Assembly: GCA_963804165.1 (NCBI GenBank)
Contig: CAWDPO010000005.1
Location: 1-40,367 of the forward strand
Direction: 5' to 3'
DNA from: an uncultured delta proteobacterium
Lineage (GTDB): Bacteria > Desulfobacterota > Binatia > UBA9968
Length of the DNA stretch: 40,367 bases
Made by a program: the position numbers and the translations under genes. Positions 1,114-22,650 of the stretch are shown here, piece by piece; positions within the stretch are counted from its first letter, which is position 1, and every line of letters starts with the position of its first letter. The notes under the pieces are model-generated. The model saw only the letters and a list, made by a program, of their open reading frames with translations, did not search any database and was not told the DNA's origin.

Positions 1114-1181
1114 GATTGAGCTGAACGATGCTTCAGTTTGATCTAGCGCGAGATTGATTAGATGGAGAATTCAGTTCAATC
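1114..1181. repeat. Palindromic doublet element, copy 1
   Basis: GATTGAGCTGAA-CGATGC-TTCAGTTTGATC, 8 bp, GATTGATTAGAT-GGAGAA-TTCAGTTCAATC. Confidence 0.95.
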
Positions 1182-1185
1182 ACAG

Positions 1186-1285
1186 CGCTAACGTTCGCCG
1201 TCACGGGCCACCACCAAACCGTAGACCTTCACGTTCAGCGGGAACCGCCAGCGGGCGCCGGGCTCGTGCACGGCGTTGGTTAGCT
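1186..1285 (-). other. Integron-type attC site
   Basis: Minus strand AGCTAAC-CAACG-CCGTGCACG...CGTGACGG-CGAAC-GTTAGCG, with an extra base in L''. R'' (CAGCTAAC) is the exact complement of GTTAGCTG at 2564-2571, upstream of the gene. Confidence 0.85.
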
Positions 1286-1350
1286 GGTCTTCTCGTCCGT
1301 GCGGAGCAAAGAGGATCACAACCAAGTCGTCCGACAGCTCATGCCGGACA

Positions 1351-2518
1351 TCACAGCATAAATATCGGGATGTCCGGCTCCAGTCCAAACAACACCCGGC
1401 CGACGGTCTCCAGGACGCGGGGCTGGACGCCTATATGCTGGGTGACGGCGTGCACATCCCGAAAAGCGCGCTCAATCGAGGAGGTTGCGTAGAGCGAGGT
1501 CGCACCACCTGTGAGATAGATGAGGTCGACTGCCTGGACGGCGCTCGTTACCGCATGCCAGCTCGCCAACCGCACTTCTGCCCGACTCTGGACAATCGCG
1601 TCGCGTCCCGAGAGCACGTCATCCCACAGTCGATTGGCCGCGTCGAAGAGAAAGAGCCGTGCCGAACGCACTAAAGCTTCTGCCTGCGACAGCCGAGTTT
1701 GCGCGCCCCGATCTTCCCCCAGACTGGCGAGTCCGTTCATGACGCTTTTCCGCCGCCAGGTCGAGTAGTGTTTCGATCGCACTCCGCGCAATGCCGAGCG
1801 CGATCACACCGAGGCCGGGGCCGGCGCGCGAATGAGGAGGGATCTGGTACCGCGGCTCGGTCAACACGATTGGGTCTGTGTGGAACGACGCATAGCGGGC
1901 CGGTACGAAGCGATCCTCCACCACGACGTCGTGGCTCCCAGTGCCACGCAGTCCGCTGACCGTCCACGTATCGATGATGGTGCAATCGACAGCCGGGCAG
2001 AGCATAAACCGGAATTCCTGCGCCCCCGACGGTGTAAGTCGGGGCTTACCGTTCTCGTGGACGATGCACATGAGGATGAACCAAGAGCTGATCTGGCAGC
2101 CGCTCACCAGTGACCAGCGCCCGTTCACCCGGTAGCCACCATCGACGACCGTGGCCCGTCCCGTAGGGCGGGTGCTGTTCGCGAGGATCATATTCGGGTC
2201 CGCAAAGATCTCTTGTGCAACCTCTTTCGACAGCCGAGCAGTGGTCCAGTGGACGTTCCCGTTCCACACGCACCAAGCCACAGAGGCGTCCGCTCGCGCT
2301 AGCTCTTCATACACCTCCATCGCATCCATAGGGGTGAGATCGAGGCCGCCATAGGCAGCAGGTAAGAAGATGCGGAAGAACCCCGCTCGGGCCAGTTCCT
2401 GGGTGAGTTCCTCGGGCAACCTCCGGTCAGCCTCAAGGCGCTCACGCTCCGCCAGGATCCGCGACCGGAGCGCGCGAGCGGCTTCCAGTATCATAGTCGA
2501 TGCTCTGCTATTGGCCAC
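1351..2518 (-). CDS. Acyl-CoA dehydrogenase-family / HsaA-like flavin-dependent monooxygenase, one frameshift near 1730; gene cassette
   Basis: ORF 1619..2518 (LPAAYGG, GYRVNGRWSLVSG, DTWTVSGLRGTGSHD) and ORF 1351..1791 (GGATSLY...IERAFRDVHAVTQH). AAGGAG RBS before GTG 2518. Confidence 0.85.
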
Positions 2519-2564
2519 GGGCTTCTCCTTTCACGTAAGTATGCCTGCTTCGTCCCCCTTCGTC

Positions 2565-2658
2565 AGCTAACGTATAGCGTTTTATCCCTGGAGGTTAGAG
2601 GCAGTCAAGTTGGGTGGAGAGCGCGGAGTAACGCCAAAGGGATAAAACGAGGTTGGAC
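2565..2658 (-). other. attC-like hairpin at the downstream end of the recombinase/IS91 element
   Basis: Minus strand GTCCAAC (perfect RYYYAAC)...GTTAGCT, with an 11-bp inverted repeat CGTTTTATCCC (2578-2588)/GGGATAAAACG (2639-2649). Confidence 0.6.
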
Positions 2659-2902
2659 TAAACCGCGGAGCAGCCGTGAGACTTCGGCTATGGGGATTGT
2701 AACAGGATGCAGTGCCGCGGGGCTTGACACACTGTTAACGAAAGAAAGGCCCGAGGACTGCAGTCGAGATCGGCGCCGGTGGCGTTGCGCCGATTGCGAC
2801 ACTGCCATGCGACTTCAAAGTTAGTTTTGGCTACTGCCAGACACACCCGCGCGATGGCGGTGGATGGAAATTCACACGAGCTGAGATACAAAGGAATCTT
2901 TT

Positions 2903-4078
2903 TCATGAAGAATCCCAACGAGCTAAACTCAACGAAGCCGGCAGGTCGCCGACGGCAATCATCGTTCCCTCAAGACAAGACGGGCAGCGAGAAAGATCGA
3001 TGCCGGTGATTTTTAGCAGCAAGTTTTTAGCTGAGAGAATGGGGCTTTGAGGCACAGCGGGAGCAAGTTTCAAGAGTTTGCGGCATTGAGCGAGGGCTTG
3101 TTTCTTGGATCGGTTGGCCAAGAAGCCGAAGTGGCGGATGCGCATGAAGCCCTCGGGCAGGACATGAAGCAGGAAGCGACGGATAAATTCCTGGGCATCA
3201 AGGAGGAGGGTCTTTTTTTGATTCCCATCTTTTCGATCTCGGTAGCTCAAGGTGACCTCTGCGTTTTCGATTCTGAGGATGCGGTCATTGGACAGAGCCA
3301 CACGATGAGTGTAGCGGCCGAGGTAATCGAGGACAGTTTGTGGCGAGCCGAAAGGCTTTTTCGCGTAGACGATCCAGCTCGTTTTGCGCAATGCTTTGGT
3401 TTCCTTGTCGGCCGCAGGGAGTTTTCCTCTCTCACCGGCCTGCTGCAACAGAGTCAAAAACTTTCCACGAAACACCCGGCTTAAGGCCTTAACCGGAAAC
3501 AGAAAGTTTTCGCGCGCCGGTATCCAGCGGCTGTGATCGAAAGACAGAGCGCCTGCGGGTACCAGACAGTGCAGATGAAAATGATCTTTAAGGGTTTGAT
3601 CCCAGGTGTGCAGCACAGCAGTGATACCGATGGATCCCTTAAGACGTGTCTGGCCAAACTCCAATAAAGTTTTACTGACAGCTTTAAACAGCAAAGCCAA
3701 CACCAGCTTTTTATGGGTCAGAATCAGACCGTTAAGCTCATGCGGTAAGGTGAAGACCAGATGAAAGTATCCCACCGGCAAAAGCTCAGAGGTTTGCTTC
3801 TCCAACCACCGAGCCTTAGCCAAGGCTTGGCACTTGGGACAGTGGCGGTTACGACAGGAGTTATAAGCCGGGCGCTCAAAACCGCAAGACTCGCATCGAT
3901 CCAGATGCCCGCCCAATTCTGGAGTCCGGCACACCGAAACGGCCCGCATCACTTTCTGCTGGGAAGCCGAAAATCGATGCGTTCGTTGATATCGCTCCCC
4001 GTACTGACGAAAGACATCGGCCAGCTCGGGGCTTGCCTTTTTTTCTCCTGCCGCCCGCCCATCAGCGCGAGACAGCAC
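2903..4078 (-). CDS. IS91-family (Y2/HUH) transposase with N-terminal Zn-binding domain
   Basis: CRT..LGGH...C..C...YNSCRNRHCPKCQ; YFHLVFTLP; LHTW...HFHLHC (HUH); YLGRY (Y2); FIRRFLLHVLP.GF.RIRHFG. Confidence 0.95.
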   Translation of the reverse strand: MLSRADGRAAGEKKASPELADVFRQYGERYQRTHRFSASQQKVMRAVSVCRTPELGGHLDRCESCGFERPAYNSCRNRHCPKCQALAKARWLEKQTSELLPVGYFHLVFTLPHELNGLILTHKKLVLALLFKAVSKTLLEFGQTRLKGSIGITAVLHTWDQTLKDHFHLHCLVPAGALSFDHSRWIPARENFLFPVKALSRVFRGKFLTLLQQAGERGKLPAADKETKALRKTSWIVYAKKPFGSPQTVLDYLGRYTHRVALSNDRILRIENAEVTLSYRDRKDGNQKKTLLLDAQEFIRRFLLHVLPEGFMRIRHFGFLANRSKKQALAQCRKLLKLAPAVPQSPILSAKNLLLKITGIDLSRCPSCLEGTMIAVGDLPASLSLARWDSS

Positions 4079-4092
4079 CGTGAGACCGCTTC

Positions 4093-4929
4093 TTAGTTCG
4101 GCAGTCTCAGCAGATCCAAAGGATTGGCCGTGGTAGTGATCTTGTGCTGGCGAATCTGCAAGTAGCGCTCGGTGCTGGCCATCGAGTTATGACCCAATAG
4201 CGTCTGAATGGTCCTCAGATCCACCCCGGCTTCCAATAGATGGGTGGCAAAACAGTGTCTGAGCGTATGGATACCGTGGCCTTTTTGGATACCAGCCTTC
4301 AACTTGGCAAGATTGTAGATTCGCTGGGCGTAGTCGATTGATATCGGACCACCCTTTCGGTTGGGGAACAGGTAAATCGGCGAACGATGCTCTTTCCAAT
4401 AAGAGCGCAGCTCGGTGAGCAAACGGGCAGATAAGATCGTGTAGCGGTCTTTTCTACCCTTGCCCTGCTCCACCCGCACCATCATCCGTTCACTGTCGAT
4501 GGCGCTGACTTTGAGCCGAACCAATTCACTGACCCGCAGCCCCGTGGCGTAAGCCGTCATCAACAGACAACGGTCGCGCTGTTTTGCCGCGGCCAACAGC
4601 AAACGCTCGACTTCCTTCTGGCCTAACACTTCGGGCAGTTGCCAACTGCGCCTTCTCGGCGGAATAAACAACTGCTTGTCGTTCCAGCTCAACATCTGGT
4701 GGTAAAAGAACTTCATCCCCGAGATCGCCACGTTGCGCGAACTGGGCGACAAACCGCGCTTTTCCAGATGCAAAAGATAAGCGCGAATCTCCTCTTGTGT
4801 GAGTTGGTCCGGCGAGCGTCGATAATGCTTGACCAGTCCGATCACGGCCGCCAGATAGGACTGCTGGGTGCGGGGCGAGAAGTTTCTCAACCTCATCTCC
4901 TCGATCATCCTTGTGCGTAACGCTCCCAT
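4093..4929 (-). CDS. Tyrosine recombinase (IntI-related, no obvious integron-specific insertion)
   Basis: SAM-like N-terminus (MRLRNFSPRTQQSY); YATGLRVSE; QGKGRKDR; HTLRHCFATHLLE; LLGH...T.RY catalytic residues; 278 aa. Confidence 0.95.
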   Translation of the reverse strand: MGALRTRMIEEMRLRNFSPRTQQSYLAAVIGLVKHYRRSPDQLTQEEIRAYLLHLEKRGLSPSSRNVAISGMKFFYHQMLSWNDKQLFIPPRRRSWQLPEVLGQKEVERLLLAAAKQRDRCLLMTAYATGLRVSELVRLKVSAIDSERMMVRVEQGKGRKDRYTILSARLLTELRSYWKEHRSPIYLFPNRKGGPISIDYAQRIYNLAKLKAGIQKGHGIHTLRHCFATHLLEAGVDLRTIQTLLGHNSMASTERYLQIRQHKITTTANPLDLLRLPN

Positions 4930-5306
4930 AACAAATCCTCCTTGGATTTAAATTTGGGAGCGACGCTATCACGCGAGATAAAAAATGGACGCTGAGTTCG
5001 AGCTATGAAAACTACGAAGAGATGAGGGGAGAACCTGAGGGGAACAGAAACACACCGCACGGCATCCGCCACCGCGCAGCGGTTTAGTTCAACTACCGAG
5101 TATACTGACCAGTGTATAGGATAATTTAAAATCCCGGCCAAAGGAATTTACTCGTTCTTTCAATCAGTTGTCAATTACGACACCTCTCAAGAACCACAAT
5201 ACACTGGTCAGTGTATTACCAATATACGTGCTAGCGCTAACGAGGGTTTTTCACGCTTGCCGGTGGCGCACTTGGTTTCATCGTTTTTTGGAAATGTGTT
5301 TCTTGA

Positions 5307-5374
5307 GATTGAACTGAACGACGCTTCAGTTTGGTTGCTGAGAAGATTGAGTTGATGGAGAATTCAGTTCAATC
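5307..5374. repeat. Palindromic doublet element, copy 2
   Basis: GATTGAACTGAA-CGACGC-TTCAGTTTGGTT, 8 bp, GATTGAGTTGAT-GGAGAA-TTCAGTTCAATC, followed by CTGGCATCGC. Confidence 0.95.
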
Positions 5375-5391
5375 CTGGCATCGCTGCGTGG

Positions 5392-6377
5392 TTACTTAAT
5401 CACCTTATCCGCTCTCGCGAGCACATTCGGTGGAATCGTTAGCCCAATCCGCTTTGAGTCTTCAAATTGATCACGAACTCAAACTTGCTCGATTGCTCGA
5501 CCGGAATGTCCGCGGGTTTGGCGCCTTTGAGAATCTTGTCGACCATCACCGCCACGCGCTTGAAGGGCTCAACCTCGTCCGCACCGTAGGACATCAAGCC
5601 GCCGTTCTGAACAAAGTCTTCGCGATAGTGAATCGTGGGTAGTTGGTACTTAGCCGCTAGCGCGATGATCCGTTCTTGATTCTCGGTGCTCTGAGATAGA
5701 CGATGCCGTGTTACGGTGAGACCAATGTTGCCCTTCTTGGCGGCCTCTTTGAAAGCGCTCTCAAAGTTGTCCGTGTTGATCTCCATGGAGTGGAGTTGCA
5801 GCCCAAGTTGCCGTGCCACAAGTTGGCTTTCTGTCCACTGTGGCTCACTGCCCTCAAACTTTGGGTACCACAACACGGCGACGCGGGTGAGTTTTGGTAT
5901 GGCCTCCTTAAGTACCTGCAGTCTTTTGCCAGCTAAAACATCGGCCATGGAGTAAAATCTCGTGATGTTGCCTCCGGGCCGCGCCAAGCTGTCAACCATG
6001 CCGCGCGCAACCGGATCGGTGTTGGAATCCGTAAAAATGATGGGAATCGCTTTGGTAGCCTTCTTGGCGGTCAGGCCATCGTTTGGACCACCCGCGATGA
6101 TAAGATCGACCTTGAGACGAACCAGCTCATCGGCCAGGGCGGAGAGCCGCTCGGGTTTCTCTTCCGCGTTGCGAAGCTCGAAAACGATGTTTTTACCCTC
6201 GACATAACCAAGATTGCGGAGCTCTCGTCGTAGCGCGTCTTGGCCAAATCTGGAGCTAGATAGTCCCCCGGACAATCTTCCGACGCGATAGACTTTTTCT
6301 GTCTGCTGCGCCCTCGCAGAAGAAACAGTCATCAGAAATGAAGTAGCCAGTAGCAGGAGCGAGATCGGCGCATTCAT
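5392..6377 (-). CDS. ABC_sub_bind-family SBP (copy B), frameshift near C-terminus
   Basis: ORF 5439..6377 has the family motifs ([38 protein letters not shown]). The tail [14 protein letters not shown] is in another frame and ends at 5392. Confidence 0.85.
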
Positions 6378-6811
6378 GGTTTGCTCCTAAACGTTCGGGT
6401 CTTCATCGAATCACCTTATCCGCCCGGTACAGCACCGACTGTGGAATCGTGAGGTTGAGCGCTTTCGCTGTCTTGAGATTGATCACCAACTCGAATTTCG
6501 TGGGCTGTTCGACCGGCAAATCGGCAGGCTTGGCTCCCTTCAGGATTTTGTCCACGTAGATAGCTACGCGCCGATAGCCGTCCGCGACGTCCCGGCCGTA
6601 GGACATGAGCCCACCAGCTTCTACAGCTTCTCTGCTGAAGTACACCGACGGTAGCCGGCTCTTTAACGCAAAGCCCACGATTCGTTTTAGGTTAGGACGC
6701 ATTACCGGGCCCGCGGTGAGCGCGTAGAGTCCATCCGGGCGCTGCTTGTTTAGCGCAGCAAAGACCTTCTCGAAGTCATCCACCGCTCGTATCTCCCAAG
6801 GTTGAATAGTC

Positions 6812-7911
6812 GGTACAAACAACTTTATTTGGTTGAAAGTTTTTTACCATTGCACATGACAAGGGGACGAGTCCTGATCAGAGCCGTAGTCCACAGAAGT
6901 AAAGCTTGAGGACTACGAATGCTACGAGTCTGGCGCATCAAATCACGAACTCTTCGGTTCATAGCTTCTAGGCTGCCGGTAGTGGTTGGCAGATTTAATT
7001 TTGGGTATTTGCGATAGGCTCTGAAATGGTCGATCCGCCTGAGAAACTCTCGAACGATCATGCGCATGACACGCAGTCGTTTTGCTTGCCGAACGCGATT
7101 GTTGAGCTGAGCGAGCACCGATCGGAGCGGAGGGCCATCGGGAAGCTCGAGAGCTTGGCGGGTCAGTTGATAGAGCGCCTCGCGCAGGGGTCTGCCATGG
7201 AGTCTGTGATTTCGTCGGCCGCGGCAGTTCTGCAATCGGCTGATGAGATGAAAATGGCAGAGCTGAACGATCCAGCCTTGGCTTGTGCCGAGTTTGACAA
7301 TACCAGAAACCTCGTCGGAGACCGAGGCACGGATACGTCTGTGTATAGAGGGCGGAATGGTTGTGAAGGCGTGAGACCACCCTTGCATGTTCTCTCTGCC
7401 TTTGCGCAGCACAGGATCGAGGAAGATCGCTCGATTTTGATGACACGGCTTTACCGCCATCAAATACACAACCCAATCTTTGCCGCGAAAGCGAAAGTAC
7501 AGTCCGTCCAAGACCAAAACCAAGGAACCTTTGGGCAAGCGCAAATCCCGAGATCGCGATGTGAACTGTCGCAGAGTTCCACGAAACCGCCGACTCAACC
7601 CTTGGTGGGTAAGACCATAGCGTGGAGCGAGAGTTTTCAGTGTGCGTCCGTCGAGCAACACTGCTTTGAGAGTTCCAGGACGCGCTCGCCGAGGCTTGCG
7701 GCCGCGCTGTTTCTTGCGGATCCTCCACGTACGCTTGCACTGACTGCACTGACGACGTCGGGAACCGAAGTGATAAATTTTCGCTCTGCAACACCGAGAA
7801 TTCGCGTGCCACGAATGCATGCACGCGAACTACACACAGATTAAAGGTCAAAGTATTCAAAAACACGGAGAAATCTCGTTTAGTTTTCAACCAAATTTCG
7901 TTGTTTGTACC
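6812..7911 (-). mobile_element. Compact 1100-bp IS256/Mutator-like insertion sequence
   Basis: 27-bp TIRs GGTACAAACAAC-NNN-ATTTGGTTGAAA (24/27 identical); 8-bp TSD GAATAGTC at 6804-6811 and 7912-7919. Confidence 0.92.
6825..7820 (-). CDS. DDE transposase, IS256/Mutator-like
   Basis: LVLDG (D1), VSDE (D2), QLCHFH (CxxH), TTGSLEAMN (E); Cys-rich N-terminus; lies between the TIRs. Confidence 0.85.
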   Translation of the reverse strand: MHSWHANSRCCRAKIYHFGSRRRQCSQCKRTWRIRKKQRGRKPRRARPGTLKAVLLDGRTLKTLAPRYGLTHQGLSRRFRGTLRQFTSRSRDLRLPKGSLVLVLDGLYFRFRGKDWVVYLMAVKPCHQNRAIFLDPVLRKGRENMQGWSHAFTTIPPSIHRRIRASVSDEVSGIVKLGTSQGWIVQLCHFHLISRLQNCRGRRNHRLHGRPLREALYQLTRQALELPDGPPLRSVLAQLNNRVRQAKRLRVMRMIVREFLRRIDHFRAYRKYPKLNLPTTTGSLEAMNRRVRDLMRQTRSIRSPQALLLWTTALIRTRPLVMCNGKKLSTK

Positions 7912-8617
7912 GAATAGTCAACTTTAGTGCATGCGCGTCGGCTGGGAGAAGCTCTTTTACCTCGTGTAAACTGGGCGGATCGGCCGGATCGTAGAGAACC
8001 GCGACACGGGAAAGTTTGGGAACGGCTTCTTTGAGCAGCTCCAGCCGCTTCCCGCCCAGTTCCCTGGCAAGGGCTGTGAGGCCGGTGACATTGCCGCCGG
8101 GACGAGCAAGGCTTTCAACGAAGCCTGCCCTAACAGGATCGGACCCAACGCCCACCATGACGATGGGAATCGTCTTGGTTGCATTCTTGGCCGCCCGGAT
8201 CCCGGGTCCCCTGACGCTACCACGATGATATCAACCTTCAGACGCACAAGCTCCGCCGCATGCTCAGGGGCCCGATCGACCTTCCCCTCCGCATATCGGT
8301 ACTCGATGGCGATGTTCTGTCCTTCTATGTAGCCAAGCTCGCGCAGAGCTAGCCGAATTCCCTCGGCGCGGGCGGAGTCAGTAGCCGGGTCGGTATTGGA
8401 TAGATACCCTAACCGAGAGACTTTCTTCGGCTGCTGCGCCTGAGCCGTCACTCCAACAGCAAGCAGCATCACTACAAGCAGGATTGATAAGACACTAACT
8501 TTCTTCATTGCACACACAATTCGTTATGTATCACGTGGGGCCGTGTAGAGGAAACTGAGATTTATGACGGAAGGCGACAGGTATTCGTCGAGTGGAAAAA
8601 CTAGATTTTTAGCGTGA

Positions 8618-8685
8618 GATTTAACTGAACGACGCTTCAGTTTGGTTGCTGAGAAGATTGAGTTGATGGAGAATTCAATTCAATT
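8618..8685. repeat. Palindromic doublet element, copy 3
   Basis: GATTTAACTGAA-CGACGC-TTCAGTTTGGTT...GATTGAGTTGAT-GGAGAA-TTCAATTCAATT; interior identical to copy 2. Confidence 0.95.
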
Positions 8686-8696
8686 TCAGGGTTAAC

Positions 8697-8788
8697 GGCT
8701 AACACGTTTCGGCTGGGCAGCGATCAAAATGGTCGCGCGGTCTTCTGGTAGTTCAGCCGGATTGTCCGCTCCAGCCGACTGGTTAGCT
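8697..8788 (-). other. Integron-type attC site of the cupin cassette
   Basis: Minus strand AGCTAAC (contains the cupin stop TAA)-CAGTCGGCTGG...CCAGCCGAAACGT-GTTAGCC. Confidence 0.75.
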
Positions 8789-9190: not shown

Positions 9191-9194
9191 TGAC

Positions 9195-9278
9195 GGCTAA
9201 CATGATGCCGCTGAGCCGTTATCAAAAAATACATCAATCATCTTTGATCTCGCTATCGGCTCAAGCGGCGGGTTATGT
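9195..9278 (-). other. Integron-type attC site
   Basis: Minus strand ACATAAC-CCGCC-GCTTGAGCCG...CGGCTCAGC-GGCATCAT-GTTAGCC; extra base in L''. Confidence 0.8.
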
Positions 9279-10289: not shown

Positions 10290-10319
10290 TTTTAAGGTGA
10301 AGGAGAATTCAATCCAATC
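10290..10319. repeat. Single degenerate palindrome unit (GGAGAA type), copy 4
   Basis: ...GGTGAA-GGAGAA-TTCAATCCAATC followed by CTGCGATTGCCGC and an SBP stop codon. Confidence 0.8.
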
Positions 10320-10336
10320 CTGCGATTGCCGCGTCG

Positions 10337-10490
10337 TTATTTGATCACCTTATCCGCTCTCGCCAGCACGTTCGGCGGAATGGTCAGCCCGATCTGCTTG
10401 GCAGTCTTGAGATTCACGATCAATTCGAACTTTGTCGGCTGCTCCACCGGAATGTCCGCGGGCTTCGTGCCTTTTGAAGTTTTGTACATG
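10337..10490 (-). pseudogene. SBP 3'-end fragment (copy D)
   Basis: Encodes [45 protein letters not shown] with no 5' part. Confidence 0.9.
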
Positions 10491-12490: not shown

Positions 12491-12576
12491 CACGGATACG
12501 GAAACGGAGAAAAGTGTTATTTTACGGCAGAAGGAAAACAGATTCATCGAGGGGAAAAAGGTTGATTTCGACGTAG

Positions 12577-12643
12577 GATTGAACTGAACGACGCTTCAAT
12601 AAAGTATCAGTAGGATGGAGTTGAAGGAGAATTCAATTCAATC
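12577..12643. repeat. Palindromic doublet element, copy 5
   Basis: GATTGAACTGAA-CGACGC-TTCAAT...GATGGAGTTGAA-GGAGAA-TTCAATTCAATC-CTGGCATTGCCGC. Confidence 0.93.
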
Positions 12644-13198: not shown

Positions 13199-14872
13199 TC
13201 ACCGCCTACGCGCGTGTATCATCTCCACTGCGTCAAAGTACTTCGGTTCGCTGCGTACGATGTCAAAGCCCGTATCGACGAGCCACTCTTTGTACTGTTC
13301 CAGCGAGTAACGTCTCGCGATGGTTCTTTCAATGGCGCGGTTGACGGATACGAGCCTGTCATAGTGCTCGCGGCAACTCTCGAACTTTGCCTTCGAGACA
13401 AGATCGTCCCTGATGCCCTCCAACAGCGAATCGAGATTCGTCTTAGAATGAGTTGTCGATAGCGTGAAAACTCCGCCTCTTCTCAACGCTTCGGCTACTT
13501 TCCTGAAGCATCCCGGCGGATCGTCCAACGCATAAGCGACATTCACCGCAACCACAGCGTCGAAGTCATTTTGGCCGTCGAATTCCGTGTTCTCCACCGA
13601 TTCCATCAGGAGCGTCAAATTCTTGTTCGATCCCAGGCGCTTCTCCGCCATCTTCTCCAGCATGAACGGATTGTTCTCGACCGCCAAGACCTGGTAATTG
13701 CGTAGCAGCAGTTTCTCCGTAACGTTTCCTGTGCCGGCTCCCAGCTCGAGGACCCGGGTTGCCCGTGCCGGAATACCGCTTATGACATCCTGGATCAGAT
13801 CTTCATAGGGCTTGAAGCCTCTCAGCAGCGCATCGTAAGAGACGGCGTAAAGGCCCCACATCCGGTCTTCAGAAAGCCGCTCTTCCAAGTCCCTCTGGAA
13901 TAGTTTCCAATCAAATTTCTTTGGCAAAAGCGCCACTGACCAAGCTTTCAGATTGGCGTCCGCGTCCGTCAGCTGGGTTGCCACTTTTATGAATTCCATT
14001 TTGCCGTAGTCCGGCGACTCGTAGACCAGCGGTTCCAGGTCAACCAGCGGGAGGTGGCCCTCTTTTACCTTTTCTGTAAATTCTCTGGCGTGCTCGAAAA
14101 CTTCAGTCTGATTGGCCAATTCGATAATAAAGTTGTTGACGTGTCGACGGCGAATCGCGGGCAGAATCCGCCTGAATATCACCTCAAATGCAACATTCCA
14201 GGCAACTACTGCCAAATGCGTGTCCAGGAAATAAGTCGGAGTCGTATATCTCGGCGCCTGGTACATCACCGAACGGAGATCGCGCAGTCGGCTGATTTGG
14301 TCCTCAGCGTTCAGCGGCGGCCGACCGGCGTCTATAACATTCTGATTCTGTTGATACTGACGCTTGAATTGATCGAAATCTCCCTCATAGGACTCGAGTG
14401 GATTAAGATTGTAGAGCAGTTGCTGATACCGGAATTCGAAGTCAATCGTTCCATCTGCCGCGGTCTTACCCGAGTCTTCGACAAGGCTGAACGGCAGCCC
14501 CTGGATGACCGCAAAGCGTCTCGGCAGATCGTATTTCGTATGAATGACGGGAAGAATTTTGCCCTTCGATCCATTCGGATCTTGTGTCTGCAGAATATTG
14601 GCTTCAAAGCGGGGCCACTCATTATCAAAGTACTCCGGAGACCACACCAGGATAACTTTCTTGGTGCGATCAATATATTCGGCCAGCACGTCGATCCAGG
14701 TCTTGCCGATGAATCGCGGCATCTCCCAATCATCGAAGAAGACATGATACCCGTTATCGCGGAGCCGCCGCGCCAGCGCGCGAGTCCAGTCCTTTTGTGC
14801 GGAATTGTAGCTTAGAAAAACATCGTATCTGACAGCTCTGTTCTCCATCGCAATCGCAGCTTGTGGCGCCAT
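13199..14872 (-). CDS. TIR domain + PAS/MmyB-like domain + class I SAM methyltransferase fusion
   Basis: YDVFLSY...VFFDDW...VILVWSPEY...WPRFE (TIR with the conserved Glu); PTYFLD...VVAWNVAF (PAS-like); VLELGAGTG...FDAVVAVN...LRRGG (MTase); GAGG RBS. Confidence 0.85.
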   Translation of the reverse strand: MAPQAAIAMENRAVRYDVFLSYNSAQKDWTRALARRLRDNGYHVFFDDWEMPRFIGKTWIDVLAEYIDRTKKVILVWSPEYFDNEWPRFEANILQTQDPNGSKGKILPVIHTKYDLPRRFAVIQGLPFSLVEDSGKTAADGTIDFEFRYQQLLYNLNPLESYEGDFDQFKRQYQQNQNVIDAGRPPLNAEDQISRLRDLRSVMYQAPRYTTPTYFLDTHLAVVAWNVAFEVIFRRILPAIRRRHVNNFIIELANQTEVFEHAREFTEKVKEGHLPLVDLEPLVYESPDYGKMEFIKVATQLTDADANLKAWSVALLPKKFDWKLFQRDLEERLSEDRMWGLYAVSYDALLRGFKPYEDLIQDVISGIPARATRVLELGAGTGNVTEKLLLRNYQVLAVENNPFMLEKMAEKRLGSNKNLTLLMESVENTEFDGQNDFDAVVAVNVAYALDDPPGCFRKVAEALRRGGVFTLSTTHSKTNLDSLLEGIRDDLVSKAKFESCREHYDRLVSVNRAIERTIARRYSLEQYKEWLVDTGFDIVRSEPKYFDAVEMIHARRR

Positions 14873-14990
14873 TGTGTACCTCTCATTTTAAAATGTGCAG
14901 CAGCATGCCGGTCTGATATCTAAGCACCGTCGTATCCGCAGCTCCAACGAATTCGCCATACTTGATCACGAGATTTGCTGTCGTCCATCT

Positions 14991-16265
14991 CTAATCATCG
15001 TTCAGCCGGGCGGTTATTGTCGCGATCGCTTGAGGCTGCAGTTCCATCGCTATCATCGTCCGCTTGACGTCGATGACGCTCGCCTCCACGCCGTCGAGTC
15101 GCTTGAAGCCGTGCTTTTCATAAATTTGCTCGTGGATCTTCAGGCACTCCAGAAAAATTGGGTTGATCCCTTTTCCTACCGCCGTTTCCAACGCCTCGGT
15201 TATCAGGCGGCCCGAGATTCCGGCTCCACGGAATGAGCGATCGACGATGACGCGGCTCAGTTCGCCGCACTTCTTGCGATTTCTGAGGATATCGATCATC
15301 CTGCCGGCCAATGTCTTGTGCGTCTGAAAAATCGCTAAGCTGAGCGGATACGCATCGTTGAGGCGGCGCTTGGACACCGGATCCGTTTCGGCAATCCTTG
15401 CAAACAACTCAACCAGCATTGGATCCGCCTCGCCGTTCATAGCCACGCGTGCCGAACCAATCAACACTTCGCCGAATCCCGATCGCCGGAATGCCCCGAG
15501 ATGAATCGAGTGCGTATCGGCCTCGTTCATCTCGAGTTTGCTCGAACTTGCCTCCATAGCTTCGTCAAGATAGCCCATCTGCGCATACACCCGGTGGCGA
15601 AGCCGGAAATACTCGCGAAACTCTCGTTCGTTGTGGCTCCGCAACGGCCGCAAGATGATCGAATCCGGATCGAATTCGGGCCGAGCTTTCGGCGCGGTGA
15701 GATATTCAAGGCGGCCAATCAGCAGCACCATCGCACGCGTTAAATCTTCACGGGTGACATCCGGCTTGATAATACGGTCAATGTCCGTTACTCGCTTCCG
15801 CGACGGCCGGATTGCTATCGTTCCTAGTGCGTGGTGCGCGAACCTCGCCTGGCATTCGCGCGTCAAACAGTCCTCGATCGATTCGGACGGCGGCTTCAGC
15901 AGGTCAGAGATCAGGATTAAAGGTCTCGAATCGCCTTTTAGAAAATATCCGTGAAGCCACTCAAGAACTCTACTCTGGTCCTCGCCAAGGTCGCCAGCGG
16001 AGGTAAGGTCGGCCGCCGTCTTCGCTCTAATCTCGAGAGCAGCTTCGTTGAGGATCCTGGCGATGTGCTGCCTGGTTTCAGGCTCCGAAACCGCTAGCGC
16101 CACCGCGACTTCGTTCGGGGCAGCCGCTCTTGAATGGAAACTCGAGCTGATTAAAGAACGAGTATGTCGATGGAGGTCAGTAGGGGGCGCCGGAAACAAA
16201 GCTGGTTTCCGTCCATCGAAAATATTTGCAGAGGGTGCTTGTGCATTCGAACCAGGCCTGTCCAT
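14991..16265 (-). CDS. Protein with C-terminal GNAT acyltransferase (LuxI/FeeM-like) and uncharacterised N-terminal domain
   Basis: YFRLRHRVY..MGYL...E.D..SIHLGAF...IGSARV; GELSRVIVDRSFRGAGIS (acetyl-CoA motif A); YEKHGF. Start at ATG 16265 chosen from the GGGAG RBS; the ORF extends to 16358. Confidence 0.75.
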   Translation of the reverse strand: MDRPGSNAQAPSANIFDGRKPALFPAPPTDLHRHTRSLISSSFHSRAAAPNEVAVALAVSEPETRQHIARILNEAALEIRAKTAADLTSAGDLGEDQSRVLEWLHGYFLKGDSRPLILISDLLKPPSESIEDCLTRECQARFAHHALGTIAIRPSRKRVTDIDRIIKPDVTREDLTRAMVLLIGRLEYLTAPKARPEFDPDSIILRPLRSHNEREFREYFRLRHRVYAQMGYLDEAMEASSSKLEMNEADTHSIHLGAFRRSGFGEVLIGSARVAMNGEADPMLVELFARIAETDPVSKRRLNDAYPLSLAIFQTHKTLAGRMIDILRNRKKCGELSRVIVDRSFRGAGISGRLITEALETAVGKGINPIFLECLKIHEQIYEKHGFKRLDGVEASVIDVKRTMIAMELQPQAIATITARLNDD

Positions 16266-17057
16266 GGCAACTCCCTTCATACGAGGGAAACAAATCCAGG
16301 TTTTGTCTTTTTTCGCTCGATTTTGACAAAGAGCAAAGAAAATGCCACCGCAAGTCATTATTGCACATGGAAGGCCTATGGTCCGATTGCGTCAAGATGT
16401 ATTCTTGCAGATTTATCGCAAAAACGTGGTCTTACGAATCTTACTTGATAGCCGTTATGGATGGAAAAGAATCGACCGAAGTCAGCATCATTGAAAAGTT
16501 CTTATTCTCGAAATCGGGTGCCGTTGTAAACGAAGTATTCTTTCGTTGACACTATTGTAGCCAAAGTATTCATTCGAACCGGTCGGACCAGCATAAGTAT
16601 CCAGGCCCCAAGGTTGCACGAATCGCCTGCCTTAGTACCGGAGCGAATTCTCACACAACGAAACCGTCCCCATCGTTCCAGGATGTTGGATCGCTACGGT
16701 CATTCAAATCATGTGCTGAAACAAAATGTGGATCTTCAAAATTCAGGAATTCTCGATTTCTTGACGCATGTTAGCCTGCTGTGGTTTTAGCTGCATGCCC
16801 TTTATTGGGCTTGTGCTTGCCCCCTTCTGCAGAGCGTCCACTAGTGGGCACTCCCTGCCGTGTACTAGAAGAGACAAAGGCACTCAAATCGAATTTAACC
16901 GCACGAGGATTGTTAATCCTCGTAGCGCGTCTAACTCCTAGAGAAACACATGACAATTTTTTCACTTTGCCATTACTTTGCCACAACCAAATCGCTATGG
17001 CAGAATGACTCTAACGATTCGCAGGTTATCTCCAACAGACCACCGTAAAACCGTTAG

Positions 17058-17125
17058 GATTTAACTGAACGACACTTCAACGTTATGTGTCGCGAGATTG
17101 CATTGATGGAGAATTCAATTCAATC
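17058..17125. repeat. Palindromic doublet element, copy 6
   Basis: GATTTAACTGAA-CGACAC-TTCAAC...GATTGCATTGAT-GGAGAA-TTCAATTCAATC-CTAGCATCGC. Confidence 0.93.
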
Positions 17126-17152
17126 CTAGCATCGCGGCTTCGCTTTCTTTGT

Positions 17153-18145
17153 TCACTTAATTACCCTATCCGCCCGCACCAACACATTCGGTGGAATCGT
17201 CAGGCCGATCTGCTTGGCGGTTTTGAGATTAATAACCAAGTCGAGGTCTTTCGGTGCCTCGACAGGTAAGTCCGCCGGCTTAGTCCCTTTGAGGATTTTG
17301 TCCACATAGACGGCGGCGCGCCTGAAGACGTATTCTCGATCTTGTCCGTAGGACATCAAGCCACCGGCCACGGTATGACTTCCCCGAGGATAAATCGCCG
17401 GCAGCCGATTTTTTACCGCCAGGCCCGTGATCTGTTTTTGGTTAGCGTTGGCCAAACTGTCCTGCGTCACGGCAAGTGCTGTGCTTCGCGCCTTGATCGC
17501 CTCTTTGAACGCGCTTTCGTATTTGTCGGTGCTGCTTACTTCCATCGAGTGAAGCTGCAGACCCAGATCTCGCGCCGGCAGTTGGCTTTCTTTCCATTCT
17601 TGAGCGGAGCCTGGGTTCTGTGGATTCCACAGCACCGCAACTCGAGCGAGCTTGGGAACGGTTTCTTTGAGTAGCTCCAGTCGTTTGCCCATCAACACGG
17701 CTGAAATAGTGGTGAATCCCGTGATATTTCCGCCGGGCCGCGCCAGACTGTCGACCAACCCGTCCGCGACCGGATCAGACACCTCTAAGAAAACGATGGG
17801 GATCGACCGGGTAATGTTCTTGGCAGCTAATGCCTCAACATCAGTGGGCGTGACGAGTACATCGACTTTGAGACGAATTAGCTCATCAACCAAAGCGGGG
17901 AGCCGGTCGTACTTGCCCTCTGCGTAGCGAGATTCAAAGGTTACGTTTTTACCGTCAACGTAGCCTAGCGCGCGGAGCTCCCGCCCCAATTGCTCGCGCC
18001 CTCTGGCAATTGCCGCAGGACGGGCTCCGAGCCAGCCAATCTTAGGGACCTTTCCTTGCTGCTGCGCTTCCGCGGACAAGCAAAGCGCAAGGAGCATAGC
18101 GCTAAGCGAAAGACCGAAGAATGAATTTCTCATCAATTCCCTCAC
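17153..18145 (-). CDS. ABC_sub_bind-family SBP (copy I), intact
   Basis: 330 aa with signal peptide and all family motifs. Confidence 0.92.
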   Translation of the reverse strand: MRELMRNSFFGLSLSAMLLALCLSAEAQQQGKVPKIGWLGARPAAIARGREQLGRELRALGYVDGKNVTFESRYAEGKYDRLPALVDELIRLKVDVLVTPTDVEALAAKNITRSIPIVFLEVSDPVADGLVDSLARPGGNITGFTTISAVLMGKRLELLKETVPKLARVAVLWNPQNPGSAQEWKESQLPARDLGLQLHSMEVSSTDKYESAFKEAIKARSTALAVTQDSLANANQKQITGLAVKNRLPAIYPRGSHTVAGGLMSYGQDREYVFRRAAVYVDKILKGTKPADLPVEAPKDLDLVINLKTAKQIGLTIPPNVLVRADRVIK

Positions 18146-18179
18146 GTGCTTTCATCTGACATCTGATCGCTAGCCGCTG

Positions 18180-19149
18180 TCATCTGATGACCCGATCCGC
18201 CCGCGCCAGCACATTCGGCGGAATCGTCAGGCCGATCTGCTTCGCAGCTTTCAGATTGATGATCAGTTCAAACTTCGTTGGCTGCTCAACGGGAATGTCG
18301 GCGGGCTTCGCGCCCTTTAAAATCCTGTCAACAAAAACCGCGGCGCGCCTATACAATTCGGCCCGGTCGGTTCCGTAGGACATCAAGCCGCCGTGTTGTA
18401 ATAAATTCTGATCGATCAAAAACTGCCGGTAGGCGATACTTTGCTGCCAAATCCGTGACTAATTTTGCATTGGTTGTTGCGACCGAGCCCGCTATGACAG
18501 TGAGAGCAGCGCTATGCAACTTCGTCGCCTCTTTAAAGGCACCCTCGAATTTCTCGGCGTTACTCACCTCCATGGAATGAAGTTGTAAGCCCAGTGCACG
18601 TGCCGCGAATAGGCTTTCCTTCCATGATTCAGCAGAGCCTGGATTCTGCGGATTCCAGTAGCACAGCGACGCGGGAAAGCTTGGGAATAACTTCTTTCAG
18701 CAACTCTAATCTTTTGCCGGTGAGAGCACAGTCCGATCGAGGTCACTCCTGTGAGGTTGCCTCCCGGTCTGGCCAAGCTGTCAACTAACCCCTCCGCAAC
18801 AGGATCGGTCCCGATATTAAAAATGACAGGAATCGTCTTCGTGGCGTTTTTGAAGGCGACGGCTTCGGGTGTGGAGGAGGCAACGAGGACGTCGACTTTG
18901 AGACGGACCAAATCATCGGCTAAGGCGGGGTATCGATCAAGCTTACTCTCTGCAAAGCGAGTCTACATAGCCGAGCTCGCGGAGTCTTGCCCGGAACACC
19001 TGGCGCCCGGTGCCTAAACCGGGACGGTCTTGGCCTCTGAAGACTAACTCCCCAATCTTGGCTATCTTTGCTTGTTGCTGCGCCTCCACGGGAAGGCAAA
19101 GCGCAATGAGCATGGCGCTAAGCGCAAAGCCAAAGACTTTTTTTCTCAT
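18180..19149 (-). pseudogene. ABC_sub_bind-family SBP (copy J), multiple frameshifts
   Basis: Split across ORFs 18943..19149, 18564..18911, 18349..18573 and 18180..18419; also appears to lack the GKNIxIE segment. Confidence 0.85.
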
Positions 19150-19193
19150 GAGATTTCTTCAGTATGCTTGTCTACGCTTAGCCCTCTGCTACT

Positions 19194-20177
19194 TCACTTG
19201 ATCACCTTGTCCGCCCGGTACAGCACGGACTGCGGAATCGTCACGCTGATGTGCTTTGCAGTCTTCAGATTGATGACGAACTCAAATTTCGTCGGCTGTT
19301 GGACAGGCAAGTCCGCGGGCTTCGCACCTTTGAGGATCTTATCTACGAAGTACGCGGCACGCCGCATCGAATCCTGACGGCTCGCGGCATAGGAAATGAG
19401 GCAACCATCATCGGCGAACGCAGCCCGTCCACACATCGTTGGAAACCGGTGCTTCGCGGCAAACTCGAAGAACTGTCGTCGATGGGAAAAGTTGAAGCTG
19501 TTGTTAGTGATGATAAGCGCTTCCGCGCGATCCTTGATGATTGCGCTAAAAGCGCCCTGAAACCGTCCAGGGTCTTTCAGGTCTTGGGATTGAATCCGTA
19601 CTCCCAAAGGCTGCGCCGCAGTCCGCGTCTCTTTCAATTCGTCCTGATCTCCTCGATTCCCCTCGTGAGAAAGGACAGCCACGCGCGAGAGCTTGGGAAA
19701 GGCTTCCTTGAGAAGCTCTAACCGCTTCGCGCTCATATCCGAGTCAACGTTCGTCGATCCGGTGATGTTTCCGCCTGGTTTTGCTAAGCTGGCGACGTAT
19801 CCGTCCCCAACAAGATCACCTGCACTCCCCACGACAATCGGAATCGTGCTGGTGGCGCTCTTGGTTGCGGCAAGTGTCCCACCCACGGTAACAAGCACGT
19901 CCACTTTTAGACGGACTAACTCGGCTGCAAGCTCCGAAAACCGATCCCGCTTCCCCTCCGCGTATCGGGATTCAATAAGAATGTTTTGGCCGACAACGTA
20001 ACCCAACTCATGCAGGCCCTCCTGGAATGCGTCAAGGTAGGACGCATAGACAGACGCCGTTTCAGGCACGAAAACCCCAACTACCGGAACCTTTTTTGCC
20101 GGCTGCGCCTCGGCTTTGACCGCAACAGCAAGCAGTAACAATGCAACCAGGATTGATGCCGCCGCAGCTCTCTTCAT
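19194..20177 (-). CDS. ABC_sub_bind-family SBP (copy K), intact
   Basis: 327 aa with signal peptide and family motifs. Confidence 0.92.
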   Translation of the reverse strand: MKRAAAASILVALLLLAVAVKAEAQPAKKVPVVGVFVPETASVYASYLDAFQEGLHELGYVVGQNILIESRYAEGKRDRFSELAAELVRLKVDVLVTVGGTLAATKSATSTIPIVVGSAGDLVGDGYVASLAKPGGNITGSTNVDSDMSAKRLELLKEAFPKLSRVAVLSHEGNRGDQDELKETRTAAQPLGVRIQSQDLKDPGRFQGAFSAIIKDRAEALIITNNSFNFSHRRQFFEFAAKHRFPTMCGRAAFADDGCLISYAASRQDSMRRAAYFVDKILKGAKPADLPVQQPTKFEFVINLKTAKHISVTIPQSVLYRADKVIK

Positions 20178-20291
20178 TGCGCACCTCGTTTCGAGCGTTA
20201 TCTATCACGCGGATAGAGATAAAAGAAAGTGTGATTTACACGGCGGAAGGACAGGTATTCGTCGAGTGAACGAACCAGATTTTTAGCCTGA

Positions 20292-20357
20292 GATTGAACT
20301 GAACGACGCTACAGTCCAATCTCGTAGGATTGAATCGTAGGAGAATACAATTCAATC
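20292..20357. repeat. Palindromic doublet element, copy 7
   Basis: GATTGAACTGAA-CGACGC-TACAGTCCAATC, 6 bp, GATTGAATCGTA-GGAGAA-TACAATTCAATC. Confidence 0.93.
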
Positions 20358-20363
20358 CTAGCG

Positions 20364-21339
20364 TTATTTGATCACCTTATCCGCTCTCACCAGCACGTTC
20401 GGCGGAATCGCTAGGCCGATTTGCTTCGCGGCTTTAAGGTTGATGATAAATTCAAACATCTTTGGTTGCTCAACGGGAATATCGGCCGGCTTCGTGCCTT
20501 TCAAGATTTTGTCGACAAAAACGGCTACGCGCTTGTAGCGTTCGGTGCGGTCGGCTCCATAGGACATCAAACCGCCGCTGACAACGAAACTTCCCTGGAC
20601 GTAAATCGCCGGCAGCCGATTTTTTGCCGCCAGCTCGACAATCCGTTCTTGATTCGACGCCCCTAACGGAGTCGAGCACGCGGCAAGAGCAGCGCTGCTC
20701 GCTTTTACCGCCTCTTTGAACGCGTTCTCATATCTGTCGGCACTGCGCACCGCCATGGAATGAAGCTGTAGCCCAAGGTTCAGGGCTGCGGTCTGCGTCT
20801 CTTTCCATTCCTGCGCGGAGCTTGGATTCTGCGGATCCCACAGGACCGCAACACGAAGCAGTTTCGGAACGGTTTCCTTGAGCAGCTCCAGCCGTTTGCC
20901 CGCCAACGCGGTTTCGACGCTGGTGAACCCCGTGATGTTTCCGCCGGGCCGCGCCAAGCTGTCAACCAGCCCCGTCGCAACCGGGTCGGTCACGTCTGTG
21001 AAAACGATGGGAATAGTCTGAGTGGCTTTTTTTAGAGCCAGGGCGCCGGGAGTTCCGGGCGTTACCAGTACGTCAACCTTGAGACGAACCAGCTCCTCGG
21101 CTAGGGCAGGAAGCTGGTCGAGCTTGTCATCCGCGAATCGATATTCAAAGGCTATGTTCTTTCCTTCAACGTAGCCAAGATCGCGGAGCATACTGACGAT
21201 AGTCTCTTGGCCGATGTTTGAAGCGCCGCGGGCTGAGAGCCAGCCGATCTTCGATACCCTGGTTTGCCGCTGCGCCTCGGCGGGCTCGAACGAGACGAGA
21301 ACCAAAGCCGTGAGCAGCCCAAGGACTTTTCTATTTCAT
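20364..21339 (-). CDS. ABC_sub_bind-family SBP (copy L)
   Basis: ORF 20364..21305. Removing one A after ATG 21339 gives the signal peptide MNRKVLGLLTALVLVSFEPAEAQ. Confidence 0.88.
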
Positions 21340-21533
21340 AGCCGTTGCCTCTTTACAGCAACGGATATGCCATAAGCCGGAGCTAATGAAAACGATAATT
21401 TTGCCAGCGCAGGAAACGGGAAGAGTCGCAATTCGACTACAGGGCGTAGCAGATTTGATTCGCTTGCGGACGGATGAAGCGACGGAAGGCGACCCACAGT
21501 CGGTAGCCGGATTAGATCAAGTTTTTTCGCCAG

Positions 21534-21563
21534 GATTGAACTGAACGACGCTTCAGTTCGATT
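21534..21563. repeat. Single palindrome unit (CGACGC type), copy 8
   Basis: GATTGAACTGAA-CGACGC-TTCAGTTCGATT. Confidence 0.93.
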
Positions 21564-21596
21564 ACGTGGGACACTTCACATAAAAAGTGCCACGGC

Positions 21597-22435
21597 TTAC
21601 TGCGCTGGCTTTGTCCCGACGGCAAATAAGGCGCGACTCACTTTATGAAAGCCACCTTCCTGTTTCAGCATCTGCAATTTTCTAAACACTTCACTCTTTG
21701 CTTGTTCGAGCGTTCCGGTGTCATTTTCTCCAATTGCCGCCGTATTCCAGCCGACCAGAGAGACAACCAAAACTCCTCCTCACATGTATAGATAAAATCG
21801 TTTTCTTCGACGGTAATGCGGATGTGTTCGAAACCGGCTTGTTGTAACGCGGTTTCTATCTGTAACGGCGTGTCAAACCTAACATCGATTTTCGCAGAAA
21901 AATCCTTTGCCGCGGGCGTCGACACAAAGGGGCGAAGCACTTCATGACACCAAGTTTGATACGGATTATCAGCGGCCCAAGTGCTGAGAGCTACCCGCCC
22001 TCCGCGCCTGAGCACACGGTAAAACTCCTGGAGAACGCACGCGGGTTCAGCGAACATCCAAAGGGCAAAGCCGCACATAACCCAATCGAACGGCGCATCC
22101 GGTAGATTCATTTGTTCAGCGTCCATATGACGGATTTCAGCGTGGCTTAGTTTTCGACTCTCGATGTCTTTAGCTGTTTCGCGTACCATGTCCGGAGAAA
22201 AGTCGATAGCGGTAACATGGCCAGTCGGTCCGACCTTTGCGGCCGCTGGAAACAACAACGCGCCTCTCCCAGCCGCTACGTCGAGCACTTTATCGCCCGA
22301 ATCCAGGTCGGCAAGATCGACCAAGCATTGACCGAAATAAGAGAAAATTTGTGGACCGATCCGGTCATAGATTGTGGCAGCCTGGCTGAACACTCGCAGG
22401 CTTTCTTCCCGCTTCTCAATACCTTTGTCAGTCAT
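21597..22435 (-). CDS. Class I SAM-dependent methyltransferase (UbiE-like), probable frameshift near C-terminus
   Basis: VLDVAAGRG, AIDFSPDM, MDAEQMNLPDAPFD, RVLRRGGR. ORF ends at 21665; an alternative-frame tail GGFHKVSRALFAVGTKPAQ* ends at 21597. Confidence 0.85.
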
Positions 22436-22620
22436 TACTACGTCCTTGCCACAGAAACAAAAGCAACAACCCGATTTTGTTGTTGCGGAGTAGCACTTAA
22501 TGATAAGGGCATATCCCAGGCCTTGAAGCTACTTATCATGAACAGAGAAGCTGACAAAAGTGTTATTTACAACAGAGGGGCAACCAGATTCGCGAGGGGG
22601 AAAAGGTAAAATCGGCCTGG

Positions 22621-22650
22621 GATTGAACTGAAGGAGAATTCAGTTCAATC
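22621..22650. repeat. Single perfect palindrome unit, copy 9
   Basis: GATTGAACTGAA-GGAGAA-TTCAGTTCAATC, with the leader on the left and CTGGCATCGC on the right. Confidence 0.96.

Follow-up and report, generated by a model that had tools for sequence, protein, structure and literature searches.

The window analysed here is the 40,367-nt stretch of contig CAWDPO010000005.1 (positions 1 to 40,367, forward strand) from an uncultured delta proteobacterium (GTDB lineage Desulfobacterota; Binatia; UBA9968; assembly GCA_963804165.1), in which a 12-6-12 palindromic site, usually doubled, recurs between genes. We tentatively interpret the double site, with somewhat less than an even chance of being right, as a lineage-specific attC-like (59-base-element) recombination site for which no cognate recombinase was found. 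In layout, position, polarity, cargo and inheritance it is closer to attC than to any other known kind of site. The feature is real and specific to the lineage.

Each unit consists of two 12-nt arms around a 6-nt spacer, and a doublet places unit A (outer-left arm GATTGAACTGAA, spacer CGACGC) before unit B (spacer GGAGAA, outer-right arm TTCAGTTCAATC). The idealised pattern GATTGAACTGAA-N6-TTCAGTTCAATC with up to three mismatches gave five matches in the window and none in 100 shuffles, and a scan for each outer arm with its spacer recovered all nine copies that a preliminary description of this DNA had listed, every one on the + strand (Table 1). Six are doublets of 66–68 bp, and the spacers were also as reported there: CGACGC in unit A (CGATGC at 1114, CGACAC at 17058) and invariably GGAGAA in unit B. 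The same description had placed a CTRGCATCGC-like flank, followed by the stop codon of a substrate-binding protein (SBP) gene, to the right of the sites; this was seen at five of the nine and is absent at 1114 and 8618, where a canonical attC-like hairpin stands. The last site of the array, the solo unit B at 22621, reads as a collapsed doublet, with the outer-left arm, GGAGAA and the outer-right arm joined directly.

A motif scan of the genome and its relatives, as the preliminary description had proposed, found the motif in both. The host assembly (7.5 Mb, 46 contigs, 55.8% G+C, 81% complete, contamination 5%) holds 114 units at up to two mismatches in the 18-mers that comprise an outer arm and its spacer: 29 doublets, 29 solo A units, 23 solo B units and two of each type in degenerate doublets. 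Fourteen clusters, none of mixed orientation, account for 99 of the 114, and a reversed-pattern control gave no matches. The palindrome has been lost while the 18-mer was kept in 13 of the 29 solo A and 5 of the 23 solo B units. With at most one mismatch, the A 18-mer is present in 14 of 24 other genomes of the genus (1 to 25 copies each; 13 of 23 without the unpublished genome G005) and in 1 of 16 genomes from two other families of the order. Exact copies were also found in public metagenome-assembled genome (MAG) records titled Candidatus Binatia or 'delta proteobacterium' (80 loci, with full doublets in 20 and a palindromic unit in 43). A further 79 loci from soil and sediment metagenomes contributed 22 doublets and 40 solo A units that are palindromic; their 18 non-palindromic matches are probably due to chance. 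Rfam, which has no attC family, gave no hits at a permissive threshold in window positions 1–24000; a text search of the available literature did not find the 12-nt arm, and a search combining Binatia with integron terms turned up no work naming 'Binatia' or 'Binatota' among the papers listed.

Arm pairing was analysed in 50 distinct doublets from the host genome and three relatives. The doublet is made up of two antiparallel 12-6-12 core sites, 63–70 nt in all, with linkers of 3–10 nt that mostly fall into two classes of 6 and 8 nt. Between the two outer arms, 10.6 of 12 positions form Watson–Crick pairs, and the inner arms pair with either partner at 6.2–7.2 Watson–Crick plus 1.4–2.4 G-T positions, bearing out the earlier description of conserved outer arms with variable inner arms and linker. 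Both spacers are almost invariant, and the palindrome reaches about 4 nt past the 12-nt arms. On the strand that reads from A to B, ACTGAAC followed by G straddles the arm/spacer boundary. This heptamer has one mismatch to the attC R-box consensus (RYYYAAC / GTTRRRY), which the doublet matches with one or two mismatches; the C of the heptamer is unpaired because the partner reads ATTCAGT. Solo units are often collapsed or split doublets.

In 70 of 95 inter-site intervals the largest open reading frame (ORF) lies opposite to the A-to-B strand, and the sites sit just past the stop codons of these opposite-strand genes, 6–30 nt after the stop in the case of SBP genes. Among 66 intervals of up to 1750 bp, an SBP gene is present in 24, a different ORF in 38 and no ORF in 4; most modules hold a single gene, and the largest reach 8 kb. 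Twenty non-SBP cargo proteins included a GDSL hydrolase, ArdC-like, cupin, SnoaL/DUF4440 and lipocalin-like proteins, methyltransferases, TenA and a serpin, with no family match for seven of the 20; the cargo in the window is of the same kind as that genome-wide. ORF strand, interval and cargo counts thus uphold the view that these are co-oriented arrays of unrelated cargo with the sites as module junctions. One SBP gene of the window is split by a 1.1-kb insertion (6798–7914) that encodes a 331-aa protein with weak IS256-family matches and has a 98.8% identical copy on contig C31. The neighbouring TIR/methyltransferase fusion and GNAT/FeeM-like protein of another module could be defence-related cargo.

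The surroundings of the sites are themselves conserved. A leader of about 85 nt lies to the left of many A units; 25 of 27 hits of an nhmmer profile in the host genome abut the outer-left arm (blastn-short had given two extra copies), and a third type of leader also exists. To the right of unit B we found either a conserved spacer and the 3′ end of an SBP (ABC_sub_bind) gene, or a canonical attC-like hairpin with CTAAC ... GTTAG ends (after 8 of the 50 doublets, at an offset of 3–12 nt), or a third recurring flank. Read in the direction of the genes, the site at 20292 is preceded by a stop codon and 6 nt and then runs through unit B, the linker, unit A, the leader and a GAGG ribosome-binding motif to the next start codon. 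After the 72 nt of conserved flank at the end of the array, the next stretch of some 170 nt (22651–22904 in all) resembles the flanks of IS91-type copies on C37 and C10.

Comparison of the arrays with one another (20 matches, ≥88% identity) indicated how the sites are inherited. Approximately 12 of about 40 ends of high-scoring segment pairs lay within 14 nt of a site edge, the rest elsewhere in genes or flanks, and identity between arrays does break within sites. In all three clean pairs (C5/C8, C12/C20 and C21/C23), the site on the 3′ side of the shared gene was identical, variable inner part included, and the site on the 5′ side differed. The site therefore belongs to the upstream gene, in the fashion of attC, since the inner part is kept on the 3′ side of the gene and not on the 5′ side. 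The proposal that each module runs from a GGAGAA unit to the next CGACGC unit did not survive this comparison; instead, in 3/3 pairs the whole doublet was co-inherited with the gene on its right in + coordinates. The methyltransferase module 21532–22722 recurs on C8 (96.7% identity, beginning 2 nt before unit A) and on C7 (77.9%), each time with different neighbours.

Two comparisons resolve the breaks further. A C7 doublet aligns with a solo B unit of C5/C8 that is its exact collapse to the outer-left arm, GGAGAA and the outer-right arm. A doublet on C21 and a solo B unit on C23 agree only in the rare outer-left arm GATTGACCTGAA and in the adjoining leader; we infer one break between outer-left arm and spacer, because GATTGACCTGAA stays with the leader side on both contigs. 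A wider test of the linkage of rare arm variants to the left or right side (2 of 4 against 1 of 15 informative pairs) is no more than suggestive, the pairs being interrelated and open to explanation by single mutations. Right-flank synteny in relatives conserved only one gene (67–78% identity); the relatives are too distant for the array to be compared in this way. Public read runs held at most 0.18 of the sampled words; joints in the contigs of four of them were considered as evidence of excision and rejected, being doublets from elsewhere that map half-and-half, with sides of <30 nt. Two further likenesses were observed within the host genome. Window positions 1–6144 are 97% identical, in reverse orientation, to C41:1–6201, including two doublets and the IS91 element; either the duplication is genuine or the bin contains two strain variants. 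The SBP frame 20364–21305 is 95.5% identical to a paralogue (C37:133717–134632) in an SBP array free of sites; the likeness extends from the signal-peptide region to the stop codon, between unrelated flanks. It suggests gene conversion, or that a chromosomal gene was recruited into a cassette.

Substitutions in the inner arms are biased by strand. On the A-to-B strand, transitions compatible with G-T pairing (A>G, C>T) outnumbered the opposite ones by 168 to 74 at equal site numbers, in arrays without background skew (GC skew −0.015, TA skew 0.017), these counts overstating independence because the copies are interrelated. The G-T-tolerant strand is complementary to the coding strand, as the recombined bottom strand of attC sites also is (PMC2727003). 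Folded as DNA, the doublet takes two forms, a pair of hairpins and one long hairpin; the latter has the minimum energy in some copies and leaves a 6 × 6 unpaired spacer. Consensus folding of the leader together with the doublet predicted only the pairing of the outer arms. A terminator-like consensus gave 18 hits in positions 4000–23000, none of which coincides with a site, and a promoter-like consensus had no match at the sites.

An attC site has two antiparallel core sites, R″-L″ and L′-R′, in which the R boxes are conserved and the L boxes poorly so; its central spacer is unpaired, its terminal structure varies and it measures 57–142 nt, with R pairing extendable to 9–11 nt (PMC2727003). 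The doublet shares with them the two antiparallel core sites with conserved outer and variable inner boxes, a length within this range, spacers that are unpaired on folding and a short variable loop. Like attC, it occupies the 3′ ends of cassettes that share one orientation, are mostly single-gene and carry diverse cargo, and it moves with the cassette ORF; at the arm/spacer boundary of the strand complementary to the ORFs it reads AAC then G, a likeness to attC that may be only partial; a mobile element has inserted into the site; and canonical attC-like sites occur in the same arrays. In contrast, its arms are 12 nt long (16 with flanks) instead of 7–8 nt, half of the units stand alone, modules extend to 8 kb and a conserved leader follows the site.

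If the doublet is such a site, gene cassettes would end in it on their 3′ side, in integron-like arrays that have no integrase next to them. A tyrosine recombinase would bind the arms and exchange strands at the arm/spacer boundary, with the best candidate exchange point between GATTGAACTGAA and CGACGC on the A-to-B strand, where AAC is followed by G as at the attC bottom-strand cleavage point. Cassettes of leader, gene and site would be excised and re-inserted, and the A-to-B strand may act folded; the substrate could be either a folded single strand or duplex DNA. Candidate enzymes are an integron integrase such as many relatives have, the host Xer proteins or another protein. The arrays would count only as integrase-less arrays, because integrase and attI are not adjacent; attC arrays of this kind are termed clusters of attC sites lacking integron integrases (CALIN). 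The definitions used in comparing the doublet with attC sites and such arrays are those of PMC2727003 and PMC4889954.

Several observations weigh against an attC-like site. All the exchange patterns could also be attained by homologous recombination or slippage between repeats, and breaks at repeats are equally expected from homologous recombination. Inner arms pair with their own partners hardly better than with shuffled ones (6.16 against 5.79 Watson–Crick pairs); no conserved extrahelical base, of the kind that sets strand choice from the R″-L″ arm of attC, was seen with a fixed 12-nt arm split, under which bulges were not searched separately, and mismatches were scattered. Unlike those of attC, the spacers are 6 × 6 and invariant in sequence, and the stems, besides having no extrahelical base, are AT-rich and weak. 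As DNA, the doublet hairpins reach only −6 to −12 kcal/mol, without a consistent strand preference, and the canonical attC-like sites of the genus fold far better (RNA parameters for these, DNA for the doublets). Half of all units are solo. The conserved leader and SBP 3′ flank that adjoin many sites are as expected of paralogous intergenic regions, and it is odd, if both end cassettes, that a doublet should come immediately after a canonical attC-like site. An integron integrase (TIGR02249) above the family cut-off is missing from the host assembly, itself 81% complete, and none was found within 20 kb of the sites examined in relatives or within 2 kb of 62 palindromic sites in the 79 metagenome loci. 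Across 25 genomes of the genus, the presence of sites does not track that of the integrase: 7 genomes have both, 8 only sites, 7 only the integrase and 3 neither.

The preliminary description had called for a co-occurring recombinase or HUH transposase; integron integrases, the IS91-linked integrase and Y1 (HUH) transposases were considered, and none qualified. An integrase match (E ≤ 1e-35) is present in 14 of 24 relatives in the genus (13 of 23 without G005), including all five with at least four copies of the motif, and scored above the cut-off in 9 of 41 genomes searched. The DNA beside five integrase genes in three relatives contained no doublets; canonical attC-like sites and arrays of a 9-bp GTTCAA-containing repeat were found there instead. 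Three or four of these repeats stand in tandem just upstream of the integrase genes, and inverted pairs of them flank short segments. They have a core similar to the doublet arm and may be attI integrase-binding repeats or a further kind of site. In the host genome itself, C34:24302–27305 encodes a 30-residue remnant of an integron integrase C terminus followed by canonical attC-like hairpins (25835–25894 and 27219–27305), and looks like a decayed classical integron.

The window also contains an IS91-family element, the extent of which was set from copies on C10, C37 and C41. The family is multi-copy, and in it the gene for a tyrosine recombinase lies upstream of that for the Y2 transposase. 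The copy in the window lies within a module, 214 nt from the nearest site, and related copies sit at the boundary of the spacer and the TTCAGTTCAATC arm (C23:251628–254230, C23:259524–262121 and C18:~37100–39750), representing at least two events. Its integrase was rejected as the cognate enzyme, as it was not found in G017, G018 and G024, relatives with 8, 25 and 7 A motifs. Also rejected were an Xer-like pseudogene within one G018 array (closest match in the host 40% identical) and a link to REP-associated tyrosine transposases (RAYT) of the HUH type, with 2 of 18 Y1_Tnp genes within 4 kb of a site.

The preliminary description had seen an integron- or pdif-like array. Its module junctions and tyrosine-recombinase core architecture stand; its definition of the module, the likeness to pdif and a co-occurring recombinase are not supported. 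As in pdif/Xer elements, gene modules are bounded by two-arm sites with a 6-bp spacer, and no dedicated recombinase would be needed nearby. Whereas pdif modules are bounded by inversely oriented sites, the doublet sites are all direct repeats, with two fixed spacer classes side by side. A candidate dif site of the host on C15 is a single perfect match to a dif consensus, and the arm agrees with its XerD-side arm at only 6 of 11 positions.

The sites could alternatively be repeats of the kind known as repetitive extragenic palindromes (REP) or bacterial interspersed mosaic elements (BIME), which we regard as somewhat unlikely. They would then serve a structural or regulatory role in the conserved intergenic regions of an expanded SBP family, perhaps as binding sites of a nucleoid protein or through an effect on mRNA or replication. 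Tandem duplication would have produced the arrays, and homologous recombination or slippage between repeats the shuffling and collapsed units. This accounts for short imperfect palindromes of two types, single or paired, with two classes of linker, that lie 6–30 nt past stop codons, often those of SBP genes, for a whole intergenic region conserved from the leader to the SBP 3′ flank, and for weak hairpins with no recombinase found, in a genome that has large SBP arrays. Yet large SBP arrays on C6, C16, C37 and C38 have no sites, 38 of the 66 short modules carry non-SBP cargo, and 99 of the 114 units are clustered in the 14 arrays rather than dispersed, bounding mobile-looking modules with unrelated cargo. 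BIME pairs are inverted, and the paired units here are direct repeats. There is also no associated RAYT-type gene, given the rarity of Y1 genes near sites, and none of the terminator-like hits coincides with a site. Stabilization of mRNA is not favoured, because the G-T-tolerant strand is antisense to the genes.

Other explanations dispense with attC in different ways. We consider it doubtful that the arrays represent a second gene-cassette system distinct from integrons, in which duplex 12-6-12 core sites of two spacer classes (CGACGC and GGAGAA) would be used by a recombinase encoded away from the arrays, genes would be mobilised with their own leader and the sites would be interleaved with classical integron cassettes. 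Quite unlikely, in our estimate, is an origin from miniature inverted-repeat transposable elements or similar transposon derivatives, with the 18-mers as terminal inverted repeats, the doublet as a minimal element of 66–68 bp and the A ... cargo ... B pairs as loaded versions moved by a transposase that was not found. The two outer 18-mers are indeed the most conserved parts and are retained by solo units that have lost the palindrome, and A ... B pairs enclose 0.5–8 kb of cargo, such as the methyltransferase at 21534–22650, which recurs on C8 with both ends. However, neither target-site duplications nor an empty/filled pair turned up, the majority of single-gene modules occupy B-to-A intervals and so fall outside such elements, and orientation is strictly bound to gene direction. 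Nor was there a cognate transposase: the IS91-type element has itself inserted into sites, and its integrase is not found in three motif-bearing relatives. Least probable, and very much so, are tandem operators: the two 12-6-12 palindromes ahead of the leader would be occupied by a dimeric transcription factor that regulates the gene downstream. The symmetry and invariant spacers would suit this, as would a position 100–350 nt upstream of the next start codon followed by a leader up to the ribosome-binding region. But conservation is poor in the inner half of each palindrome, a strand-specific substitution bias would not be expected of duplex binding, the site is co-inherited with the upstream gene and not the downstream one, no promoter-like match occurs at the sites, and neither the solo half-units nor the final site of the array suit this explanation.

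Table 1. Coordinates of sites, flanking elements and genes in the window, with repeats at integrase loci (L) of relatives
Feature	Position	Strand	Basis or remark
Leader abutting unit A	1040..1112	+	nhmmer E 5.4e-10; outer-left arm 1 nt on
Doublet, unit A (CGATGC) and unit B (GGAGAA)	1114..1181	+	arm/spacer scans
Canonical attC-like hairpin CGCTAAC ... GTTAGCT	1186..1285	.	fold −45.9 kcal/mol, RNA parameters; 4 nt past unit B
IS91-family element in module; transposase 2903–4078, tyrosine recombinase 4093–4929	2567..5093	-	Pfam Y2_Tnp, Phage_integrase; NCBIfam transpos_IS91 439 bits
Doublet	5307..5374	+	arm/spacer scans
SBP gene (ABC_sub_bind)	5439..6377	-	Pfam PF04392, E 1.3e-44
SBP gene, C-terminal piece 6403–6822 and N-terminal piece 7957–8517	6403..8517		
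Leader abutting unit A	8544..8616	+	nhmmer E 4.7e-15
Doublet	8618..8685	+	arm/spacer scans
Canonical attC-like hairpin GGCTAAC ... GTTAGCT, 3′ end of cupin gene 8783–9190	8697..8788	.	fold; cupin Pfam hit
Solo unit B, left arm degenerate, then SBP 3′-end remnant	10290..10319	+	arm/spacer scan
Leader abutting unit A	12493..12575	+	nhmmer E 2.5e-13
Doublet	12577..12643	+	arm/spacer scans
TIR–methyltransferase fusion 13199–14872 (557 aa) and GNAT/FeeM-like protein 14991–16358 (455 aa), one module	13199..16358	-	Pfam
Doublet, spacer CGACAC	17058..17125	+	arm/spacer scans
Two SBP genes (17153–18145, 19194–20177) and SBP fragment 18564–18911, one module	17153..20177	-	Pfam PF04392
Leader, bridging site and ribosome-binding region of SBP gene starting at 20177	20207..20290	+	nhmmer E 7e-12
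Doublet, 6 nt from stop of SBP gene 20364–21305	20292..20357	+	arm/spacer scans, sequence read
Solo unit A, 3′ side of methyltransferase module	21534..21563	+	scans; identity with C8 begins at 21532
Methyltransferase cargo	21665..22435	-	also in other arrays: C8 96.7%, C7 77.9%
Leader abutting last site	22545..22619	+	nhmmer E 5.9e-08
Solo unit B, perfect arms; last site of array	22621..22650	+	scans
Conserved flank past last site	22651..22722	+	recurs after B units on C8 and at three G018 loci
GTTCAA repeats	L024 13266–13350; L026 5433–5487, 6246–6300; L027 3292–3334, 4491–4598		
GTTCAA repeats	L028 169–211, 513–564, 3884–3977, 6135–6195		

What the double sites would mean for this lineage depends on which of these readings holds. 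A REP-like origin would make them an ordinary lineage-specific repeat family. If they are recombination sites, integron-type attachment sites would be broader than the canonical form, with longer arms, fixed spacers and no extrahelical base, and an abundant soil lineage, as yet uncultured, would be shuffling dozens of cassettes, including those for transporter binding proteins, among many chromosomal arrays. The adjacency of canonical attC-like and new sites would then allow the co-evolution of site classes and integrases to be tested. The cassette frame, with its near-identical paralogue outside any cassette, is relevant to the origin of cassettes; if the likeness reflects recruitment, the system could show chromosomal genes turning into cassettes.

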